Origin: Mobula hypostoma
Lineage: Eukaryota
Length of the DNA: 64,000 nt
Assembly (NCBI RefSeq): GCF_963921235.1
Contig: NC_086108.1
Span: forward strand, 75,084,001 to 75,148,000
Direction: 5' to 3'
Shown here: positions 3,501 through 62,225 of the stretch, one piece after another
Layout: each line of letters starts with the position of its first letter
Numbering within the stretch: the first letter of the stretch is position 1
Made by a program: the position numbers and the translations under genes
The notes under the pieces: generated by a model
Seen by the model: only the letters and a program-made list of their open reading frames with translations
Database searches by the model: none
What the model was told of the DNA's origin: nothing

Positions 3501-4290
3501 CCTATTCTCATTCTAGGTTATCTCTTTTCCAAGTTTAATATTATAAACCAAACTGATAATTTGATTAAAAGCATTTAAATTCCAATTGTGTACATGGAAT
3601 GCACAGATATGGCAGCTTATTTATATTGAAATGTTGATGATGATAATGAGTATTCTGATTCTTTCTTTTCATTGTTGGATGAATAAAATTATGTGTCAGG
3701 GATAATTTTTTCTACCAACATTGTATAAGACGTTATAAGATGGAAAACAATCGCTTTGTTCTCCTTTACACTCATGCACTGAAGAATGACAATAAACAAA
3801 CGTGAGTCTCTGTACTAATCATATTAAGAGTGAAAAATCTGACACTGAGCATATCGTCCAAAGTCAAAGTCTATCCAACAACATTATCAAATAAGCAACA
3901 GAAGGGATTAATAATTCCGCAGCACAACACAAGCTGAAGTGGATTTGAACTTATGGTGAAGTTGTATAGGGCATGAAATGGTCTACATAATTTGTATCAA
4001 CATTGAAGAATTCTAGCCTTTTTCAATAAAAAAATTCATAGTCAGTTGATTTACTACAAGCATTCTACTCTGGGAAGTCAACAGACCTGTTCAGCCAGAT
4101 ATAGAGAGCATGATTTTTCACTTCTTGCATAAAAAAATTGTGTCTAGCCTTAATGCACAGCATAATTTTCCACATCTCCTGTCCCCACCCCTAATAAAAT
4201 AGCTCAAGTGCTCAATCTAACATCTTAGTACATCAGCTTACTCGATCCACAAGTAAAACCAGCAAAGAAGGAAAACACTGCACTATCTGC

Positions 4291-4686
4291 AGGGGGGATC
4301 TTATTGAAACGTATAAAATCCTAAAGGGATTGGACAGGCTAGATGCAGGAAGATTGTTCCCGATGTTGGGGAAGTCCAGAATGAGGGGTCACAGTTTGAG
4401 AATAAAGGGGAAGCCTTTTAGGACCGAGATTAGGAAAAACTTCTTCACACAGAGAATGGTGAATCTGTGGAATTCTCTGCCACAGGAAACAGTTGAGGCC
4501 AGTTCATTGACTATATTTAAGAGGGAGTTAGATATGGCCCTTGTGGCTAAAGGGATCAGGGGGTATGGAGGGAAGGCTGGTGCAGGGTTCTGAGTTGGAT
4601 GATCAGCCATGATCATACTGAATGACGGTGCAGGCTCGAAGGGCCGAATGGCCTACTCCTGCACCTATTTTCTACATTTTCTATGT
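4291..4686 (+). mobile_element. Young CR1 LINE 3' fragment
   Basis: ORF 4330..4593 (RGHSLRIKGKPFRTEIRKNFFTQRMVNLWNSLP), then a 3'UTR with GGGCCGAATGGCCT and a TTCTAT-type tail. Near-identical to the inverted copy at 63613-63837. Confidence 0.9.
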
Positions 4687-5415: not shown

Positions 5416-6857
5416 GTATTTTGAGGCAACGCTAACCCATTCTATGTTCTCATACTCTGCTCATTTGAATGATTATGCAAATGATCAATGCTAACCATAC
5501 TATGTATTGGCCTCACATATCCAAGGACCCAATATTGTCATTTGTACTAGCCTTCACCTTTAAAGACAATATAAATTACAGATGGAGGTTCTGTTAGAAA
5601 TTGTGCAATTCATTGATTGGACCTAGGAAATCTTGAGGAATGGCCTACTATAGGATAGAGCAGGCTTTGAAGATGCATGTTAATTAGCTTCATGACGTGT
5701 CCATGGGCATAGTTCAAACAGACCTTCCGCCCATATTCAAAACCTATGCACCAATATGGAATTTTCAACAGAAATCTGCAACAGATCTTCAAACAAATGT
5801 TTTAAGTACAGTCTCATGCTTCAGGTATACCAACATAATTTACATTTAGTGCAGCACTTGTATTTGTCAGCTTCAGTAATATATTTCCATTTTTCATAGA
5901 AAGATGAAGATTCAGAACATTAAAAAAATGAATGCACCTACTTCCAAGTAGGTATAAAAAATAGCCAACAGAAATGAGAACCCTGTCAAACTGAGAAAAG
6001 TATAATTGGAAACAACATTTTACAAAATTGAATTTGCCATTACCTGAAGGGATCATTACTTCTATAAAAAGTGTCCAGACAAAGTGTTATTAATGTTGTC
6101 TTTATATAATACAAATTATACCATTGGACCAAATGGTGCTTATACCATCTGTGGAGCTATTCATTCCTGTCTGGATACACTGGCTGTAATTATGTGTGTA
6201 TAGCTTATACCGAATCTTGAAGGAAGCCTTATTAGTGTTGCCAGACAGGGAGACAGAACTGGTTGACCTCAGGAAGATTTACAACTTACACCAGTCACTT
6301 ACAACTGAGGGCCCAGTTTCATTTGAGTTTACAGCTTCTTAGACAGTCCAAGTAAATAACTAATTCTGAACTTCTAAACATGCAAAGATAAAACATGGCT
6401 ATCACCATTGCATTAATTTGTAAACTAAAGTAAGCAATGAATAAATTACAAATCATCTGTTGATAAATTGGGTGTTTTGACAGGGCTGATTTGGACAGCA
6501 TGGTTCCAATTTGAATCTGAGGCTATAGAGATGAAAATCCACCCCATTGTTTCCAAGGTTTGAAAGGAAAGGGCAATTTAGCAGAAATCTTCTGTTCCAG
6601 CTTTATGTTGTTGCTTATTAGAAAGCTGATCTTTGTGCCTGTGGCTGAGAATAGAGTTAAGCCCGATTTTAATTTCCATTGCATAGTAACAGACAAGAAC
6701 GATATGGGTTATCAAACTATGACCTCTGAAAAAGTGATATTAGTTCTGTCTGCAAAGCGTAAAGTAGTTCAATTACAATACTGGGATTTTCTACTGAAGC
6801 ACTGAAATTCATATTCACAGTCGGAGGTCTTTAATTCATACCCTCCTGACAAATGGT

Positions 6858-7463
6858 GGTGGTTGGTATCTGTCTGTCTCGAAGGATAATGGGTGATGAT
6901 CGTTATCATCACAAGCCTGGGCAGAAGGTATGAGAGCCTGAGGTGCCCAGTCGAAAAGATCTCCCTCTTGGCCTCAGCAGCTTATAAAGCAATACACTTG
7001 GCACCAGTTTGGTTGCAGAAGATGCCGGAAGGATGTTCAATGACATCCAGCTGCTTTAGAGGCTTCACTCCGGTTTTGCTGTCTGGGTTTACTCCCGTAG
7101 CCTCATCTCTCCCGAGGCTGCCCACAAGGCAGTACGGCTATTTACCCGTAGCTGGGGATCTGGTTCACAAGCATTAGGGCGTGTCCACAGGCTGGTGGGC
7201 CTGCGTGCTACCTGTGCAGGGGCCAGACCTCCTCCCCATCCTCTGCAGTTCAGCCTGAGTCCAAAAGGAGTTCAGTTTTCATGTGTCGCCAGCGAGGAGG
7301 ATTGCTGTTAGAGTGGCTAAGTACTGGCAGAGAGAGACTTACACACTCAGCTTTCCTTTTCAGGAGACTGCTAGCCAACGGCGGTAGTTGAAAGTGAGAG
7401 TGACAAGCACTACCCACTACACCACCACACTAGAAGCGTCACAACAAACATTTTGACACCAAA
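6858..7463 (-). mobile_element. Non-autonomous RTE-related SINE-like element, probably full length, with internal HDV-like ribozyme
   Basis: Degenerate TSD CCCTCCTGACAAATGGT (6841-6857) / CCATCCTAACAAATAGT (7464-7480). A-box-like head GTGGTGTAGTGGGTAG on the minus strand, ACC-type tail. Second 5'-truncated copy at ~57033-57350. Confidence 0.75.
7244..7346 (-). ncRNA. Degenerate HDV-like self-cleaving ribozyme
   Basis: Minus strand reads P1 GTGTGTA...GACACAT; P3/L3 (T)CC TCCTCGCT GGC; P4 CTGA..TCC TTTT GGA.TCAG; J4/2 GCTGA; P2 3' ACTGCA. The 14-mer CCTCCTCGCTGGCG matches the P3-L3-P3 core of the genomic HDV ribozyme. Confidence 0.65.
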
Positions 7464-7764
7464 CCATCCTAACAAATAGTATGTTAAAGGAGAAGTAAAT
7501 GAATAATTGCTTTTATTAAACAGAAGGATCAGTCATTCATTGCATTTTTACCCAGGCTCCTTAGAATCAGCTTTCTTGCTTCACTATGATCCTGCTACAT
7601 TCCATTTGCTCAATCACAACTGGAGAAGTGGTAAGGTACTGGAATGATAATGATCTAGATTATGTCTAGGTTTTACTCATTGCTCCAAGATAAAAGAAGA
7701 CTGCCTCCTCTTCACTTTTCAATTCTTCTCTGAATCCCATGTTTTACATTAAAGTAATAAACTC

Positions 7765-8167: not shown

Positions 8168-9320
8168 AACACATACAAAATGCTGGAGGAACTCAGCAGG
8201 TCAGGCAGCATCTGTGGAAATGAAGGTGATAAATGAAGCCAGGTGGGAAGCAAATGTAAAGTGCTTGAGAGGAAGGAATCTGATAGGAGAACGGGCAGGA
8301 AGAGGGAGCCAGGGGAAGGTGATAGGCAGGTGAGAAGAGGTAAGAGACTAGAATGGGGAATAGAAGAAGAGGGAATTTTTTTTTCACCAGAAGGAGAAAC
8401 TGAACCTTATGCCATCAGGTTTGAGGCAGTGTTCCCTCTAATTTGTAATGACCAGTGTGTGCAAAATTCTTGTGCAGTGCAATTTTTTTCCCTTGTGACA
8501 ACAACATTTGCGTACTGAATAATTTCTTCAATAAAAACAGCATAAGTAAGCCAGTTCTAAATTCTGCAGACAAATCATCGCAAACTCCACGTTGTCAAAA
8601 CTGCATGCATGAGAAGCCGGAAAAGGAAATGTGATTGTGAACGATTGTGAAATATATTTAACATGCCAACAAGGTAGAGGGTGACAACCTTTTGGGCACA
8701 GTTTAAATTCCTTTGTGCACTAGTAGCAAAAGATGTATGTGTGTGCACATGTGCATACCTTAGAAGGAACATTGGTTTGAGACTACCTGGACAGAATATA
8801 GATATTACTCTTCCACCCTGAGGGTGGCCTCATTATGGGACAAGAAGTGGTCATGGACCGACATGTCAGAATGGGGAAGGGAATCAGAATTAAAATGTTT
8901 GGCCATTGGGAAATACTGCTTTTGGTGGATGGAGCAGAGATGCTTGACGAAGCAGTTCCCCAATTTACAACAAGTCTCAGTAATGTAGAGGATGCCACAT
9001 CGGGAGCACTGGAAACAATAGATGACCCCAGCAGAAACCTGGGTGAAGTGTTGCCTCATGTGGAAGGTCTGTTTGGGGCCCTGAATGGAGGTGAGGGAGG
9101 AAGTGAATGGGCAGATGTGGCACTTTGACTGCTCGCAGGAGTAAGTGCCCAGAGGGAGATTGGTGAGAAGGGATAAAAGGGAATCACGGAGGGAGTAATT
9201 CCTGCAGAAAGCGGTGGGGGTGGGTTTGGGGGAGGAAGGTAAAGATATGTTTGGTGATAGGATCACTTTGGAGATGGTGGAAGTTGAGAAGGATATGTTG
9301 AATGAGGAGGCTCAGGGGGC
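8168..9320 (-). mobile_element. Penelope-like element fragment (GIY-YIG endonuclease plus 3' end)
   Basis: ORF 8805..9266 (CHICPF...HFTQVSAGVIYCFQCSRCGILYITET...AKHFNS). 3' terminus ACACATACAAAATGCTGGAGGAACTCAGCAGG at 8170. Interrupted by the element at 8427-8774. Confidence 0.9.
8427..8774. mobile_element. hAT-like non-autonomous DNA transposon (MITE)
   Basis: TIRs CAGTGTTCCCTCTAA / TTAGAAGGAACATTG; 8-bp TSD GTTTGAGG (8419-8426) / GTTTGAGA (8775-8782). Confidence 0.8.
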
Positions 9321-16699: not shown

Positions 16700-19389
16700 A
16701 CTTCCATCACATAGCATGTGACATGACTGCACCTATACCTTAAGGTGAGGTGACATAGGCTAGCTTCACTGGACTATGTGGATCATAATGATTGAATACA
16801 GTGTCTGATGTTACCATTTACTTGACCTTTTGGAAAGCCACCTCACACTGCTTTGTCCATTGTCAGTTCTTCCCAATCTGTAGTAATGAGTTAAAGGGGT
16901 GCGGCACAGTTGCCAGGTTTGGCAGGAACGCTTATAGTAATTGACAGATCCTAGAAAGGACCGGAACTGTGACACGTCCCTTGGCCTTGGGGTATCCACC
17001 ACTGCTTGAATTTTCTCAGCACCCTTATGTAAACCTTGTGCATCAATTGTGTGACCACAGTAAGTGATGCTTGGTTTAATAAATTGATACTTACTGCGGC
17101 ATGTTCTGAGGCCATATTCTTCTAATCTTTTTAACACTGTACTGAGATTTTGGAGGTGTTTCTCATCATCCTTACAATAATACTGAGCGCCTGGGCAGCC
17201 TTGCTTTCTGCCAGAGTGCAGATGCAGACGCTACTCCAAAAGTGTGCCTATTGTAGTGATAACGATATAGGGAGTGCTTATGGTGAGAAACACTTTGGAC
17301 TCTTCTTCCAACTCCATCTGTCTGTGGGTAGACCTCAGCTACATCCATTTTGCTGAAGTGTTTTCCTCCAGAAAGGTTTGCAAATATATCCTCCATCTTG
17401 GCAGAGGGTATTAATCTACTTTCAGTACTGGGTTGATGGTGAAATTAAAATCACCGCAGTTCCATTCAGACCCATTCTTCTTGGCTACTGGGACCACTGG
17501 CATTGCTCATGTGATCCACTCAGCCTTGGAAAGAATTCCTTCAGCCTCCATGTCATCTACCTCATTGGCTACTTTATCACAGATGGTATAAGGAACCAGA
17601 TGGACTTGTAAAACCCAGGTGTGGCATTTTCATTTAACATTATTTTACCCTTAATAAGTTAGAGTTTTCCAGTGCCATCCTTGAACACTGCTGTGGCATC
17701 ATCCAGTACCTTTTAAAATTCACTTTCAATTGACTCTATGACAGGGGATGTGGCATGCAAATGGTGGATGGATCTCCAATTAAGCTGTAGTTGTCTCAGC
17801 CACTCACCCCCACAATGCTGGCCCTCCTGTTTTTACCACATTCAAGCCAAATGTGGCATTGTTATTTTATTTCACTGTTATGAATGGCATTCCCACAGGA
17901 ATTATCTTTGCTCCAGTATAACTTTGCTGGATATCTGCAGGCTTCAGATTAGTACCTTTGAAATGCCGTTCAATTTCATTTTGTTGAATGACTCAAACAG
18001 TCAAACCAGTGTCCAATTCCATTTTAATTAATTTGCCATTCACTTCTGGTGTAAGCCATATTGTTTTGTCTCCCGTTAGTTTATACATAGTAAATCTCAA
18101 GGCTATTCAGTCCTGTCTTACTCTCATCATCAGATTTTTCATCAACATCATGCAGACTAATGCTTCTTTTGAAACTGCAACTTGACTTTTGAATCTTTTT
18201 CTCTTCCCTGAGCAGTCCATTTATTTTTGTCTGCCCTTTATATGTGTCCTAATTCATAGCATTGTCTATACTTTCACCTTTAAGTCTGCATTGGTCTGGT
18301 GTATGTGAGTTCCTGCCACAACAGTAACACAGTTTGCTCAGCCAGACAGGTTTCTGTTTAAACATTGCAGTTTTGGTCACACTCACTTTCGTTCCTGACT
18401 GCAACTCAATTGCATTGCTCTCTGCAGTTTCAATGGATATAGCTATTTCAACTGCTCTTTTAAATGTAAGGTGTGCTTCAGCTAGGAGCCTTTTATGTAT
18501 TCTTTCATGTAAGATTCCACAAACAATCTCTTGGTGCATCATTAAGCCCTTTACAGAACTGACAATGCTCAGACAATCTCTTCAATTCAGCCACATACGC
18601 TGAATTGGATTCCCCTTCCTTTTGATTCCAATTATGAAACCTAAAGTATTCTGCAATCCACAGTGGCTTTGTTTTTAACTGTTCCTGCATTACTTTCATA
18701 TCAACAAAGCTCATTTTTGCAAGTTTAGTTGGAGTAGTTAAACTTCTAAGCAAATTGCATGCCTTTAAATCCAACACGTGCAACAAAATTGGCACTTGCT
18801 TTTCATTGTCTATTTTATGTGCTTCAATATACTGCTCAATTTGCTCAGTATACAATATCCAGTTATCTCTTGTGCAATCAAACTCTTCTATCTTTCCAAA
18901 GTAGCCATCCATTTCTGCTCTTTTATTTTATTTATGATTATCATCAAGTGGTACTCATTGTTTATGAACCCATGAACTTGTCTGTTTTCTGCCTTTTTTG
19001 GAATTCAACCTTGTCTGTCCTCTCCCGAAGAAGCATGTTTTTTAAAAACTCACTGTCACTGTGCTTCAACAGGTAGCTAATCATCTTGGGTTTGTTTGAA
19101 TCTTTCCTGTCTCCACTGTTATATTTTGTAACTCCAACATATGAGATGTTGCCTGGCCTGCTGCGTTCACCAGCAACTTTGATGTGTGTTGCAGGAAAAA
19201 GATGTGAGTTCAGGAGAATGCGTCTTAGCTTCGTTTTACTTTAAGTAAAACACACATGTATGGTGTGCTGGCATGATGATATTTCTATTCATGTACTTTT
19301 GCATATAAATGAATTATTTAAATGAACAAGAATGCTTAATGAAACAATATATTTACAATATTACTTAAATATCACTGAAATACACAACA
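16700..19389 (-). mobile_element. Decayed Gypsy LTR retrotransposon (Mag/K02A2.6-like), copy A: 5' LTR, gag, protease, RT
   Basis: LTR 19117-19389 (TG...AACA on minus) followed by PBS-like GTGGAGAC. gag ORFs 18505..18912 and 18249..18542; RT ORFs 17172..17396 (EDIFANLSGGKHFSKMD) and 16811..17137 (LRSFLG-like, VNYY). A small PLE end sits inside the LTR (~19143-19192). Confidence 0.9.
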
Positions 19390-20624: not shown

Positions 20625-22635
20625 CAGTCAACCTTCACTAATTCAACTACCAGTAATCTGGTTCCTTCGATAATCTGGCACTGATGTCAAATTTTCCGCG
20701 CAACTGTTATTTCAGATTTCCCAGGCCACCGTACCAATCTGCTGGGCATTGTTTTAGTTGCGCTAGATCTGTTCACTTGTTGGCGCGTTCTTGTTTCTGC
20801 TTGTTTTCCTGCAGTTATTAATATCATTGGCTCTTTTTTATCACCAATTATGGCCCCAGTGAGTAAAGCAAATGCACTTCGTGCTGTGAAGCGAAAACAC
20901 CACACATTATCCATTAAAGATAATTAGATTAGATTAGATTCAACTTTATTGTCATTGTGCTGAGTACAGATACAAAGCCAATGAAATGCAGTTAGCATCT
21001 GACCAGAAATGCAAAGAGTAGTGTTATTTACAAAATAACTGCGAATAAAGAGTAAGTGCTACAGCACACAAATATAAAAGTACTGAGACAGTACAATATG
21101 GGTGCAATGCTGCTTAGTGCTGTGATGTGAGATTCAGCAGTGTCACAGTCTCAGGGAAGAAGCTCTTCCTGTGCCTGCTGGTGTGGGAGCGGAGGCTCCT
21201 GTAGCGCCTACCGGATGGGAGGAGAGTAAGAAGTCCATGGTTAGGGTGAGATGCATCCTTGATAATGCTTTTCACCCTGCCCAGGCAGTGTTTATGGTAG
21301 ATGTTCTCAATGGTGGGCAATTGGGTGCCAATAATCCGCTGGGCAGTTTTCATCACACGCTGGAGTGCTGGACAGTGGTGTATCGGTGAAAAGCTTGTGC
21401 GGGTGTTACGACATTGGCTCTTCCACAGTGTACGATATAAAGAAACAGAAAGAAAAACTGCTACATTTTTTGCTGATAGTGGTTCAAAGAAACAGATCTG
21501 CATAAGAAAAACAATGAAAGACAGAAGAAGTTAGGAACTAGATAAAGTGCTGATAATGTGGTTTAATCTTCGTATAAGTGAAGGTGTTGAACTGTCTGGA
21601 GATATGGTGAAGGAACAAGCAAAAGTGTTTCCTGAAGAACTAGAACTTGATTATGAGTGTGACTACAGTGAAGGTTGGCTTCATCGGTTCAAGCAGAGTC
21701 ACGGCTTACAGTTTCGTGCAGTGTGTGGTGAAAAACATTCAGCAGACAAGGAAGCAGCAGCAGAGTTTGTTGGCAAGTTCACCAAGTTAGTCTCCGATGA
21801 AAAATTCAGCCCCCAGCAGGTGTACAATGCTGATGAGACTGCTTTGTATTGGAGATATACACCAAGAAGAACACTAACAACAGCAGATGCAGAATCACCA
21901 GCAGGGTATAAGGTATCGAGAGATCGTGTGACTTTGCTAGCAGGGAGACTTTCTATTGACAGGCTAATTAAGTTGACAGGTGAATTGCTGAGAGCAACGA
22001 TGTTTTATAACTGAGCAAGAAATAATGAGTGTTTATATGTTGCAGGATAAGCTAATCAAAGAGAGACCAAAATATATGAAACAGCTTACCTTGGAAGATA
22101 TGTTCAAAAAAATTACTAGAAGAAGTGCAACAGGGGAGCTAACACTTCAAAATCCAGTGCCATCAACTTCTGCTCACCCAGATGTGCTGTCACCAACATC
22201 AACAGTTCTTGAAGAAACTGTTGTGCCAGATTCAGCACCAGTTCCTGATGCTTCACTCATTTTTCAAGATGAAGATGTTGATGATCCTGACAACCCCACA
22301 CTTGCAGACATGTAACTTTGCCTGAAGGTACATTAAGTGTCTCAGTTTAGAAGTGGAAGTGCTCAACTTTTCTGTATAAGTTAACTCCTGTACATTTACC
22401 TGTACCCTTTATTTTATCTGTGCCTGTGCAGTATATTACTTTAGTAAAATTTCACTTGCTACTCATTTAATATTTCTGTTTCATTATTATCTAATTTGTA
22501 CTGATTTGCACGATATTTTAAAGGTAGGATGAGGCGGTTAGCTATTGGTTAGTGTGATCCTTCTGTCATTCAGCATTTTCCCGAATCCGGCACTCCTCAG
22601 ATCCCAACGGTGCCGGATTAGTGAAGGTCGACCTG
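20625..22635 (+). mobile_element. Tigger/pogo DNA transposon, internally deleted, with Rex1 insertion
   Basis: TIRs CAGTCAACCTTCACTAAT / ATTAGTGAAGGTCGACCTG with flanking TA. Transposase starts at 20850 (MAPVSKANALRAVKRKHHTLSIKD); CENP-B HTH (SEGWLHRFKQSHG) and start of DDE_1 (VYNADETALYW...DRVTLL) in ORF 21547..22014. Confidence 0.9.
20925..21372 (-). mobile_element. Rex1/Babar LINE 3' fragment inserted in the Tigger transposase
   Basis: ORF 21114..21503 (LQRVMKTAQRIIG...LLPSGRRYRSLRSHTSR); (ATCTA)n tail at ~20925-20940. Confidence 0.9.
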
Positions 22636-23060: not shown

Positions 23061-23546
23061 GAGGCATCAGATGAGAAATACCTGCTGTGGTGCCATCTTT
23101 AAAGAACGTATTGATGTGTTGTTGGAGTGAAACCAAGTCTGTGGGGGGAGCCTGTAAACACCAGCACTGAATGGACCAAATGGCCTGGTTCTATGTTACA
23201 ACGCTTACGTGAATATATTTTGAGACATTCCTGGGATGAAATGCAGGCAATAGATTTCATCAGTACATGCCCTTCATTTGGAAAGGTGAGATTTCAACAT
23301 GTATGATACTTCACAAGTGAGACATATGTATATACAGTATGGCCACATAGGAAAATATAAGGTCGATTCAAATCTGTGCTGCCACATCTTGGTGGAGTAG
23401 AGCATCACATGTAAATCCCATTTTTTACGACATTATGCACGATTTAGAAAATATTTTCTGTGCAGTAACTTACAAAATGCAAGGCAATAATAGCAAGTGA
23501 GGTCAATTGTTCTTCTGAAACAAATAATGCCATACCAATGGTGTAT

Positions 23547-24295
23547 GGACACTTCACCTGTGAGTCGACTGGGGTGATATACTGTGTCTGGTGCTCCCGA
23601 TGCGGCCTTCTATATATTGGTGAGACCCGACACATACTGGGAGACCGTTTCGCTGAACACCTATGCTCTGTCCGCCAGAGAAAGCAGGATCTCCCAGTGG
23701 CCACACATTTTAATTCCACATCCCATTCCCATTCTGATATGTCTATCCATGGCCTCCTCTACTGTAAAGATGAAGCCACACTCAGGTTGGAGGAACAATA
23801 TCTTATATTCCGTCTGGGTAGCCTCCAACCTGATGGCATGAACATTGACTTCTCAAACTTACACTAATGCCCCACCTCCCCATCATACCCCATCCGTTAT
23901 TTATTTATATACACACATTCTTTTTCTCTTTCTCCTTTTTCTCCCTCTGTCCCTCTCACTACACCCCTTGCCCATCCTCTGGGCTTCCTCATCCTTTTTT
24001 TCTCCCTAGGCCTCCTGTTCCATGATCCTCTCATATCCCTTTTGCCAATCAACTGTCCAGCTCTTGGCTCCATCCCTCCCCCTTCTGACTTCTCCTATCA
24101 TTTTGGATCTCCCCCTCCCCCTCCTACTTTCAAATCTCTTACTAGCTCTTCTTTCAGTTAGTCCTGACGAAGGGTCTCGGCCCAAAATGCTGACTGTACC
24201 TCTTCCTAGAGATGCTGCCTGGCCTGCTGCGTTCACCAGCAACTTTTATGTGTGTTGCTTGAAATTTCAGCATCTGCAGATTTCCTCGTGTTTAC
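23547..24295 (+). mobile_element. Young 5'-truncated Penelope-like element (GIY-YIG domain, 3' pseudo-LTR)
   Basis: ORF 23538..23867 (HFTCESTGVIYCVWCSRCGLLYIGET...PVATHFN...GSLQPDGMN). Mutated hammerhead at 24160-24195; long 3' end ..GATTTCCTCGTGTTT. Confidence 0.92.
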
Positions 24296-30080: not shown

Positions 30081-32029
30081 GTCTGCTGTGTGAAAGTAGA
30101 AGAGTTGGGACGTTTTACTGTATCGTTGGTGCTGTACGCCACTTGATGTTAGTGTTGTTGCCACTGTGGGTTCAACATGTATATTAAGATCCTTCTGCAG
30201 AGCCCACTGTAAAGAGGAATCTGCAAAAGATAGCAATTCAGGAGAGGAATCTATTATAAACAGTACGTCGGAAAGAGAAATAGAGAGAGAGAAATAAATG
30301 TGCAAAGAAAAATTGATGCATACAAAGTCATTTTATTAAAGAAAAGTTATTAATTTTTATTTGGCAGCAGAATAAGAAATGTTGGGCCATGTGGAAACAT
30401 GTTCTAATTTGCTCCACTAATGGCAAGACTAAATCTTGAGTCATAAGCTCTACAGAAGTGAAAGCATCTGGCAAATCTTTCATGTACATTTGTTTTCTAT
30501 AGAGTAATGTAGGAAATTTCCTAAATGACGAAATGCTTACTATAATGGTGGCTAGACCCTTTCTGTGTATTTATAGGGAGTTCCATGAATGCTGCCATTT
30601 TCCTGGACATTTCTATTTCCGAGTGGATATGGGAGCCAGGAAACAGATGAAACTCCTTAAGTCAAGGACATTAAACATTACTTGAGTGAGGAAAGATTAT
30701 AAATGATAGGCTGAAAAATATCAAGTAAAATTGATTTCTAAATGAAAAAGGAAATAAATAGGTTTGGATGAATGAAAACGGTGGCCAAGAATTTCATGAG
30801 AGCTGCTCCTCCCGCACTGTAACCTCAAAACCTATTTATGTAGCTATGCCAGAGGTGCAGAGCAAACAGAATTTTTACTGCACTTCTGGCAGAGTAACGG
30901 TGGTCAGTCTGAGGAAATTCCATCTGGTATTTTTATTTATTTTAAATTGTGTTTTGCATATTTAGATATGATATATCTAATATTACAGTAATACAATATG
31001 CCAGATTTTGGAGTGTGGTACTGTAGAAGTGACTAGTTTTAGCTTAACGGTGCACAGTTCTATTTAAAAGAAAACAAATCATATGGTCTGCAAACATGAG
31101 GCACTTCCCTGCTCTCTGGCCGCTTTGAGAGCTGAAGGCAATGTGATCAATGATTCTGCACTACCACTCTATTAGCCGTGAATTGCAGAAGTATTTGTGG
31201 TCCTCTGCTGAAATACTGAAAATTAAATTGAAGTTGAACTTTTATAAACTTGTTCATTGTCATTGGATATTTGGCCTCTTTGAGCACGTTCTTCTAGTGA
31301 TTCCCATAACGTCTGCATTAACAATAATAAAATAAGGTTTACAACAGAAGTCAGTTAGCAAAAAAAAAAGCTCGACTATTCAGAACATATGAACACATGA
31401 AAGAAAACTAGAATATATTTATTGGTTCAGTAAAATATTTTGAAGCAAGTGCTTGCATTGGATATAGATTAATATATCCCCAGTTCCAGGGTGTCAAGAT
31501 CTCTGAGGATCTAACCTGGTCCCAGCATTTTGACGTAGTCATAAAGAAGGCGAGACAGCAGCTATACTTTATTAGGAGTTTGAAGCAATTTGGCATGTCA
31601 ACAAATACACTCAAAAACTTCTATAGTTGTACCGTGGAGAGTATTCTGACAGGCTGCATCACCGTCTGGTGTGGAGGGGCTACTGCACAGGACCAAAAGA
31701 ATCTGCAGAGGGTTGTAAATCTAGTCAGCTCCATCTTGAATACTAGCCTACAAAGTATCCAGGACATCTTTAGGAAGCGGTGTCTCAGAAAGGCAGCATC
31801 CATGATTAAAGACCTCCAGCACCCAGGGCATGCACATTTCTCACTGTTACCATCGGGTAGGAGGTACAGAAGCCAGAGGGCACACACTCAGCGATTCAGG
31901 AACAGCTTCTTCCCCTTTGCCATCCGATTCCTAAATGGACTTTGAAGCTTTGGACACTACCTCACTTTTTAAAAATATCTAGTATTTCTGTTTTTTGCAC
32001 TTTTTTAAAATAATCTATTCAATATGATT

Positions 32030-57032: not shown

Positions 57033-57350
57033 TGGTTAGCGTCCATCTATCTCGAAGGACAATGGGTGTCGATAATCATCATCACAAGCCTGGGCAGAAG
57101 GTACAGAGGTCCTGAGATGCCCAGTCGTGCAGATCCCCCTCTTGGCATCACCAGTGTAATCCAAAGGAAAGCTTATGAAGCAATACATTTGGCACCAGCT
57201 TGGCTGCAGAAGCTGCCGGAAAGAAGTTCAATGACATCCAGCTGCCTTAGGGGCTCCACTCCAGAATTGCTCTCTGGGTTTACTTCTATAGCCTTCGTCT
57301 CTCCTGAGGCTGCCCACAGGGCAATGGGGCTATTTACCCATAACTGGGGT
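57033..57350 (-). mobile_element. 5'-truncated copy of the 6858-7463 SINE-like family (lacks the ribozyme)
   Basis: Colinear with 6860-7160 (ATCATCACAAGCCTGGGCAGAAGGTA...GGCTGCCCACA). Confidence 0.85.
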
Positions 57351-60087: not shown

Positions 60088-62225
60088 TGTCAGGCCTGAA
60101 CAGGCACACACCTCCCAGTCTCCACCCAGCTATCAGCAGTCACCATCTACAGCCTAGTTAAACCCAGCTCTCAACCGCATTGGTTGTTCACTATCAAACC
60201 AGCCAGACTCAACCAGTTGCTCATAGCCTTCAGTGGCCCCTTGTGGCTTGTTATTTTGCAGTTTAATATTAAAGTGATACCCTACTGCAAAATCATCTCC
60301 GCTGCTCTGCATTTGGGTCATGCCCCCCTGCATCTCCTGACAGGATGAGTGAACCATCAATTGACCCAGCAGAGTTTGCTTGCCTTAAGGAAGTTCCCAC
60401 TGACGTAAGTACACAATCCAGAAGCGGCCGGAATGACCATCTGTTCGCCACTCTCAACCAACGCTCCGTCTCATTACAGCAAACCCCACACCAGTCAACC
60501 TTCTTCAAACCCTCAGATTCCAGTGCCTGAATACTTCAATGCATCCCCAATCTGATGCCACAACTTCCTATCCCAGTCCATCTAACACTTCAAGGTCCAG
60601 CCATTTCTGTATTCTGTGGATTAGGCCAAGATAGCCTTCATCATTTCCCTCTTGACTGGGCGAGCTCTCTCTTGGGCCACCGCTGACTGGGACAATAAAA
60701 CCACCATCTGCAATAAAGGTGAGGAATTCACCATGAGGAGATGCGCCAGGTTTTCGACCATTCAGGAAGTGGAACGGAGGCAGTGGATTGGATACTTCCC
60801 CTGCATCAAGGCTTACGTTCAGTGCTGGATTACACCCTGGAACTCAGGACCCTCCAGCAGAGTGCAGCTGGAATGCAAAAGCGCTGCTGACCCATTACCA
60901 TCACCGCCTTTTAGATCGACTGAAAGACAAGCAGCCCACTGACCTTGAAAGCCTCACTTTGGCCCTCCATGTGAACAAGGAATTACCTTCCAGATCACCA
61001 GCCAAAACCCCATTTCCATTCCCACAACCATTTCAGGCGCAGGACCCTCATCAGCAAGGCCTCCAGAATACATACAGTTATTGAGAGCTCCTTTAATCCC
61101 CCCTGAGCATGAGCATCAGTGAAGAAGCACGCATGTTCAACTTGTATTGCGCCAAACTGGAGTAGGAAACAGGGAGCTTTTGTTGTTCAGTCATTCAGTG
61201 AAGTCTGACTCTTCCTGACCTCATGGACTCCTGCACACCAAGCCTTCTTGTTGGAAACTGCCTCTCTAAGATTCCCCAAGGTCACACACATTGTCTGAGT
61301 AATATTATCCATCCATTGTAGCCACTGTCATCCGCTCCTTTTATCTAACATGAGAGTCTTCCCCAAAGAATCCTGTCTTCTCATGATGAGGCCAAAATAT
61401 TTGAGCTTTTGTCTCATAATCAATCAAACCACCTAGTGAGCAGTCTGGCTGTATTTCTTCAAGAATGGACTTGTTAGATCTTCTTGTTGTCCAATGAAAT
61501 CTTAACACTTTCCTCCTGCATCCAAGTTCAAAGGCGTAGATTCTTTTGTATTCAGCCTTACTAATAGTCCAGCTCTCACAGCCATACATCACAACTGGAA
61601 GTACCATAGACATGACGATACAGATCTTCATAGACAATGTTATATCTCTGCTCTTCAATATTTTGTGTAAATTTGCCATTGCTGCCCTCCCCAGAAGTAA
61701 ACGCCGTTTAATTTTGTGGCAGGGGCCACTCACCGTTAAATGGGCCTTGCAGGAATGAAGACGTTGGCTGATGGGGAGTAGTGAGCCCTTTCTGATCTGG
61801 GCTGACCAGCACAACCTCATACCCATTCAGCAGACCCGCCAACTCAACCTACGTCAGACTCGCTGGGCCCTTTTCTCCAAGCAATTCAACTTCAGTACCT
61901 CCTACCAACCCAGCTCCAAGAACACTAAGGCAGACGCGCTGTCACAACAGCTTGACTCAATTGAAACACCAATCGTTCGTCAGCCTATCATTTCATCCTG
62001 ATAAATCCTTACCCCAGTCATCTAGGATGTTGAGAACTAGATCCACCAGGCCTTGCAGCACGAACCTGCTCTGGCTGACATCCCTGTCAACCGCATGTAT
62101 GTGCTGGCAGCCGTGCACAATGAAGCACTCCAGTGTGTCCACTCCTCGCCTCTCTCCAGCCATCCAGACACACAACGGACACTGGATTTTCTGCAATGCC
62201 AGTTTTGGTGGCCCACAGCACAAAG
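60088..62225 (+). mobile_element. Sushi/chromovirus-like Gypsy element: LTR, gag, deleted PR/RT, RNase H, integrase Zn-finger
   Basis: LTR 60088-60342 with TGTCAGG/CCTGACA ends; gag (AKIAFIISLLTGRALSWATA); RNase H VGNREL..VKWALQE..RQTRWALF..KNTKADALS; integrase H-x6-HP..FWWP. Confidence 0.88.
61180..61719 (-). mobile_element. RTE-BovB-like LINE 3' fragment
   Basis: ORF 61341..61826 (IKRRLLLGRAAMANLHKILKSRDITL..VVMYGCESWTISKAE..FELGCRRKVLR..WTTRRSNKSILEEI); BovB-type 3'UTR and CTGAA/CAA tail. Confidence 0.88.

Follow-up and report, generated by a model that had tools for sequence, protein, structure and literature searches.

A decayed RTE-derived element in Mobula hypostoma and the HDV-like ribozyme predicted at the 5' end of its family

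HDV-like ribozymes are reported at the 5' ends of RTE, R2, R4, baggins and L1Tc/Ingi elements (available portions of PMC6765202, PMC3774820 and PMC5786205), and the cleavage of RTE ribozymes is placed at the 5' junction in the excerpted text of PMC3774820. A cut at the element's first base is a known arrangement (RTE, R2 SIDEs, NARTc), and ribozyme-headed RTEs and internally deleted derivatives of them are already known. Drosophila R2 SIDEs (PMC3414825) and trypanosomatid NARTc/SIDER (PMC4035085), as described in the accessible parts of these papers, are short and internally deleted, carry a 5' HDV-like ribozyme and a LINE 3' end, belong to the R2 or Ingi clade and have demonstrated cleavage. 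RTESINE2, WALLSI3, MAR4_MD and RTE-N2_Lch combine RTE 5' and 3' ends with no ORF and no small-RNA head, and have a conserved mid-UTR domain and a microsatellite tail; the available part of PMC5786205 mentions ribozymes of RTE elements only as predicted and locates none in the ORF-absent elements. Here we compare with these systems the element at 7460-6855 on the minus strand of a 64-kb stretch of Mobula hypostoma DNA (the window, to which all coordinates refer) and its family, called family 1. The features of both groups recur in family 1, which differs from the R2 SIDEs and NARTc/SIDER in being a probable RTE-clade family, dispersed and flanked by target-site duplications (TSDs), with a predicted ribozyme, and from the ORF-absent RTE elements in that the ribozyme is mapped here, by prediction. 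We consider it very probable that the window element is a decayed, non-coding copy made of an RTE 5' UTR and 3' tail, and that the family's first ~229 bases, predicted as an HDV-like ribozyme, would cut before the first G. Like the ribozymes at other 5' ends, this one has the double-pseudoknot order, a cut predicted at the first base and a long J1/2; unlike them, it has a bulged P1 in the family's subfamily A, and the family is known from sequence alone. In drz-Agam-2-1, too, P1 and P2 are separated by a large J1/2 that a P1.2 stem closes; family 1, for which such a stem is predicted, differs by a P2 of 6 bp (not 12) and a linker of ~5 + 7 nt; by analogy with the drz-Agam-2-1 data, slower cleavage would be predicted for family 1 (PMC4908430, available part). 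With the genomic HDV ribozyme (record L250, RF00094) family 1 shares the identical 14-nt P3-L3-P3, a 7-nt P1' (the P1 3' strand), GG, and C-N-R-A followed by P2' (the P2 3' strand), whereas the letters of P1, P2 and P4 are unrelated and J1/2 spans 159 nt instead of 3.

Table 1. Features of the family 1 copies in the window
Feature	Position	Strand	Remarks
Whole element	6855..7460	-	subfamily A copy of a bipartite non-autonomous RTE derivative; 89.6% identity to family 1 majority
5' TSD, 15 bp	7463..7477	-	13/15 letters agree with 3' copy
P1 5' strand (GGTGTC)	7455..7460	-	5'-end/TSD mapping; unforced folds of majority and autonomous L225
Long J1/2	7302..7454	-	fold and sequence shared with autonomous copies; predicted basal P1.2-type stem
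12-nt deletion site between short direct repeats	7301..7302	-	alignment to family; P2 5' strand removed
P3-L3-P3 core	7288..7301	-	family 1 majority identical to genomic HDV core
P1 3' strand (GACACAT)	7281..7287	-	letters read; fold; pair count
P1.1 partner	7279..7280	-	GA in window copy, GG in family 1
P4 hairpin	7255..7275	-	7/7 pairs retained
J4/2 (GCTGA)	7250..7254	-	putative catalytic C7253, plus A7250
P2 3' strand (ACTGCA)	7244..7249	-	pairing partner deleted in window copy
Conserved mid-UTR RTE domain	7137..7157	-	matches RTE-3_BF/Ceph-SINE stretch printed in PMC5786205 (available part)
Joint of two LINE ends	6893..6911	-	near-palindrome of GAT/ATC repeats, subfamily A-specific
RTE 3' tail ending in short tandem repeats	6855..6892	-	86-93% to autonomous copies' 3' ends
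3' TSD	6840..6854	-	15 bp, 2 mismatches vs 5' TSD
Second, 5'-truncated family 1 copy	57033..57349	-	begins at conserved mid-UTR domain; without ribozyme

As an insertion, the window copy is dead and unremarkable (Table 1). A first-pass annotation had seen in it the decayed fold of an HDV-like ribozyme, carried by a non-coding retroelement between TSDs; the flanking TSDs and the HDV-like core were confirmed, but not the proposed layout, which started P1 at G7346 and took AGCAAT as the P2 5' strand. The letters themselves are all present on the minus strand (G7346-TGTGTA, AGCAAT at 7306-7301, GACACAT at 7287-7281, GA at 7280-7279, the P4 hairpin at 7275-7255, GCTGA at 7254-7250 and ACTGCA at 7249-7244), and CCTCCTCGCTGGCG at 7300-7287 is, as had been claimed, identical in all 14 letters to the P3-L3-P3 core of the genomic HDV ribozyme in L250. 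Two additional T (7462-7461) lie between the 5' TSD and the element start, in front of a cleavage point that modelling places immediately 5' of G7460. AGCAAT was rejected as the P2 5' strand: it pairs in 4/6 positions and is the leftover of a deletion, because the 12 nt holding the real strand are missing in this copy. Beside this deletion the first P3 letter is altered, and the pair count is 0/6 for P2, 2/3 for P3 and 7/7 for P4. GA at 7280-7279 is CpG decay of the family's GG; in the P1.1 column, 54/70 family 1 copies have G. C7253 and A7250 occupy the positions homologous to the J4/2 C and A of L250, and a catalytic role of C7253 may be supposed from this homology. Taken alone, the window copy failed the strict and all other descriptors and folded no better than its shuffles (z -0.84). 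It lost the P2 5' strand after insertion, and its ribozyme is likely inactive.

Where the family begins was mapped on tail-anchored copies, comprising 90 of the 100 tail matches listed (four already sampled and the last six were omitted; two of the 90 are near-duplicates). Starts fell at family positions 1-3 in 35 copies and within 1-12 in 45, with none at 106-125, the region of G7346 (position 115); none of 31 copies in a second sample (33 loci, two unscored) started near G7346 either. A TSD was called in 35 of 72 full-length copies, and in 19 of these 35 it ends at or on the first G; this G1 is present in 40/72. The element's first bases are complementary to P1', and the unforced fold of the majority sequence contains the terminal P1 and P3 (pair probability 0.6) together with P4. 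Among 63,993 7-mers in the window, only 19 can pair with P1' in the manner of the terminal P1. These data bear directly on the cleavage at G7346 proposed in the first-pass annotation, behind an A-box-like head acquired separately. Five pairs can indeed form there, six in the 13/69 copies with G at position 115, and an A-box-like 11-mer (7424-7414) is present. However, 55/69 copies have A at position 115, which lies inside J1/2 (~159 nt in family 1) as does the 11-mer, the internal P1 has a pair probability of 0.0 in the majority, and forcing it costs 15 kcal/mol. The internal P1 was therefore rejected, and cleavage at G7346 is very improbable, also in view of the origin of the head.

Longer family 1 copies are rare in the genome and pointed to an autonomous LINE. 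In 5/18 stretches examined, family positions 2-582 (80-86% identity) stand upstream of a broken coding region, and three of these five autonomous copies also show the shared tail within the stretch, with 3' ends 86-93% identical to that of family 1. One of three autonomous coding pieces matches the Pfam RT domain (PF00078, E 1e-14), the other two match nothing. The ORF is missing in family 1, a non-coding unit of ~630 nt composed of an RTE 5' UTR (582 nt) and an RTE 3' tail, and both its ends are common to the autonomous LINE. Endonuclease-like and C-terminal motifs of this partner, judged by eye, are taken here to be RTE-like. Assignment of the partner to the RTE clade is suggested by its 5' UTR domain (PMC5786205, available part), single coding region, short tail and these motifs. 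The partner with the shared ends stands in the same genome as family 1. Because autonomous copies carry positions 2-582 upstream of their coding region, the ~115-nt head that had seemed unusual is the LINE's own 5' end and, in the fold, a segment of J1/2; therefore neither insertion from uncleaved RNA nor separate acquisition of a head is required. A tRNA or other small-RNA head was likewise rejected, since no tRNA was found in 10/10 loci and no B box within one mismatch (the best candidate has two), so that of the suggested SINE-like head only the A-box-like match stands.

The best 40 scored near-full-length copies of 2675 candidates in the 3.48-Gb genome of the species are 78-83% identical to the window copy, and a 23-letter tail word occurs exactly 179 times. 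Family 1 copies differ from their majority by ~7% outside CpG, with little subfamily structure, and TSDs, a tandem-repeat tail and 5' truncations are all present. The majority restores P2 (6/6 pairs), P3, L3, the P1.1 GG, P4 and the J4/2 C, as had been expected of a consensus, whereas P1 is restored only at the element terminus and not at G7346. The nested double pseudoknot, with P1, P2, P3 and P1.1 in order, is found in the majority but not in the window copy; the conserved L3 letters are identical to HDV and the J4/2 C...A stands at homologous places. A strict core is retained in 14/106 copies, in three of these 106 with the terminal P1. Four copies (L054, L067, L092, L108) have internal deletions that drop the core and leave part of J1/2. 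Relatives also appear in contigs from sequencing runs, which are uninformative on ends or cleavage. No match was found to the named families printed in the available part of PMC5786205 and its supplement, nor did we find a description of family 1 in the papers searched.

The majority passes the strict descriptor, as does one of 3000 shuffles, and core plus terminal P1 occur in 0/3000 shuffles, for family 1 and likewise for a related family 2. A chance resemblance to HDV would fit the results with general models. Rfam scans of the window and of 11 copies, a check proposed in the first-pass annotation, gave no HDV-type or other ribozyme match in the window and no HDV-type match in the copies; the Rfam HDV models have a short J1/2. 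L250 scores 106 bits with RF00094, and a genome-wide scan with this model gave no match near an element and is weakly informative, as the control was also unmatched. A covariance model of family 1 (R1) gave 69.7 bits for the window copy, as expected from identity, found only the 14-nt core in HDV (11.9 bits) and missed family 2. J1/2 folds little better than its shuffles (z -1.2). Covariation within family 1, also proposed as a check, was not above shuffles (140/500 reach the score); this is expected because the copies decay from one master, and gives no support for the fold either. On viral contigs a 23-letter core pattern matched 40 unrelated stretches besides the HDV control. None of these 40 has both P2 and P1, however, which are found together in the HDV record alone, and with the shuffle counts and a family 2 that repeats the layout in other letters, mere chance is a very remote explanation.

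Family 2 (L285-L314, e.g. L286) is a bipartite RTE family, younger and abundant (4460 candidates), with 72% identity to family 1 further down the UTR. By manual assignment its P1 and P2 letters are wholly different, in the same layout and with P1 at the terminus. Among 30 copies P2 is intact in 28 and P1 in 18, and P1, P2, P3 and the C...A motif are jointly retained in 15. In its fold, L3 carries an additional 7-bp hairpin, GU follows P1', P4 is lacking, and J1/2 is closed by a stem resembling that of family 1. Only a descriptor that was relaxed once family 2 had been inspected accepts this fold, and the P1 of family 2 has a low probability, 0.07, when the fold is unforced. Family 3 (L315-L339) is RTE-derived, ~420 nt long and 82% identical to family 1 over 337-576. 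Its 5' ends are sharp (about 17/25 by eye) and lie in an apparent inner J1/2 hairpin, and the descriptor found no HDV-like fold in it; sharp ends alone are therefore no proof of a ribozyme. In none of the three families do the terminal ~29 nt of the tail pair with the 5' UTR better than shuffles do. A hairpin lies just upstream of the 3' tail at the joints of families 2 and 3 and of subfamilies A and B; the one of subfamily A (window 6911-6893) consists of tail-type repeats arranged as a palindrome.

The two subfamilies of family 1 differ at their first bases. G(T/C)GTGTC, of which G(T/C)G completes the 7-nt partner of P1', starts 13/16 autonomous and subfamily B copies and 0/75 copies of subfamily A. 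The T form, commonest among B and autonomous copies, gives a perfect 7-bp P1, whereas in 5/16 the second pair is a C-A mismatch; in L225, a natural autonomous copy, a TSD abuts the start and the unforced fold gives terminal P1 and P3. In subfamily A, the dominant one, the start is shorter by one base, and P1 is modelled with 6 bp and a single bulged A. Both the bulge and the C-A mismatch speak against activity, since mismatches in P1 can abolish it (PMC3774820, excerpted text). Subfamily B is likely older, with a divergence of 0.085-0.10 against 0.069 that is biased by being measured to the majority of A. At the 5' junction of five copies (L080, L134, L147, L158, L172) the first bases of the element are repeated in a short tandem duplication, which suggests re-priming on the template at the end of reverse transcription, and such a duplication could have produced the shorter start of A; similar shifts of the 5' start are described for R2 (PMC3774820, excerpted text). 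It is conceivable, though we hold it for rather unlikely, that the ribozyme was functional in the LINE and in subfamily B but is a relic in A, where an internal promoter would have set the 5' end and the first G may have been copied from a cap. This would agree with the lack of the 7-bp P1 in A, with G1 in little more than half of the full-length copies, with the sharp ends of family 3 and with L1Tc, in which promoter and ribozyme coincide in the first 77 nt (PMC4035085, available part). Against it, no core pair is lost in the majority of A and the putative catalytic C is retained, the start of A remains complementary to P1', where a G1-C pair can form, and a 6-bp P1 is common (accessible parts of PMC4908430 and PMC3774820).

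Family 1 is most likely an internally deleted RTE that is processed by its own ribozyme and mobilised in trans. Directly established are the two-part anatomy, the partner LINE, the sharp 5' ends, the TSDs and the pairing of all majority helices; folding, cleavage and mobilisation in trans would, as modelled, proceed as follows. A master copy would be read through from the host or from an internal promoter, and the ribozyme would release unit-length RNA by cutting before the element's first G. The partner's endonuclease and reverse transcriptase would then bind the shared tail and insert the RNA in trans by target-primed reverse transcription, leaving TSDs. Family 1 would add a vertebrate-type RTE family, with an autonomous partner and several intact copies, to the elements likely processing their own 5' end. 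With it, the ribozymes predicted for RTE elements can be put directly to the test, together with naturally occurring variants of P1 (7 bp, C-A mismatch, bulge). UTRs of RTE elements serve in gene-insertion tools (PMC13708176, excerpted text), where processing of the 5' end matters.

The bulged P1 in the main subfamily is one small addition to what is known of such elements; pile-ups of truncated starts are the other. A uniform distribution of the starts of 45 truncated copies would place 12 in 69-227, 0.8 in 228-238, immediately behind P2', and 1.8 in 314-336, the zone of the mid-UTR domain; observed are three, five and ten, respectively, in windows picked after inspection of the data. A second sample loosely repeats the pattern, with 2/20 at 225-233 and 7/20 at 312-340. 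Few of the truncated starts have a confirming TSD (1/16 in the first sample), and some may stem from later deletions. The second copy in the window (57349-57033, minus strand) starts at the mid-UTR domain, which is also the start of the RTE part in Ceph-SINEs. We regard it as possible, yet doubtful, that subfamily A spread with an active ribozyme despite a P1 bulged by a one-base shift of the 5' end and that, in addition, reverse transcriptase stops at the 3' edge of the ribozyme and at the mid-UTR domain. If true, the mid-UTR stop would coincide with the start of RTE-derived bodies in unrelated SINEs, and would explain why SINEs recruited the middle of the RTE 5' UTR and lost the ribozyme.

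The window also holds, at 61341-61826 (minus strand), what was judged by eye to be the remains of another, distinct RTE-like coding region. Broken reading frames at 4198-4593, 8805-9311, 16811-18927, 21114-22014, 23469-23867 and 31412-31945 resemble CR1/L2-like, Penelope-like, LTR-type, Rex-like and Tigger-like elements in their motifs.
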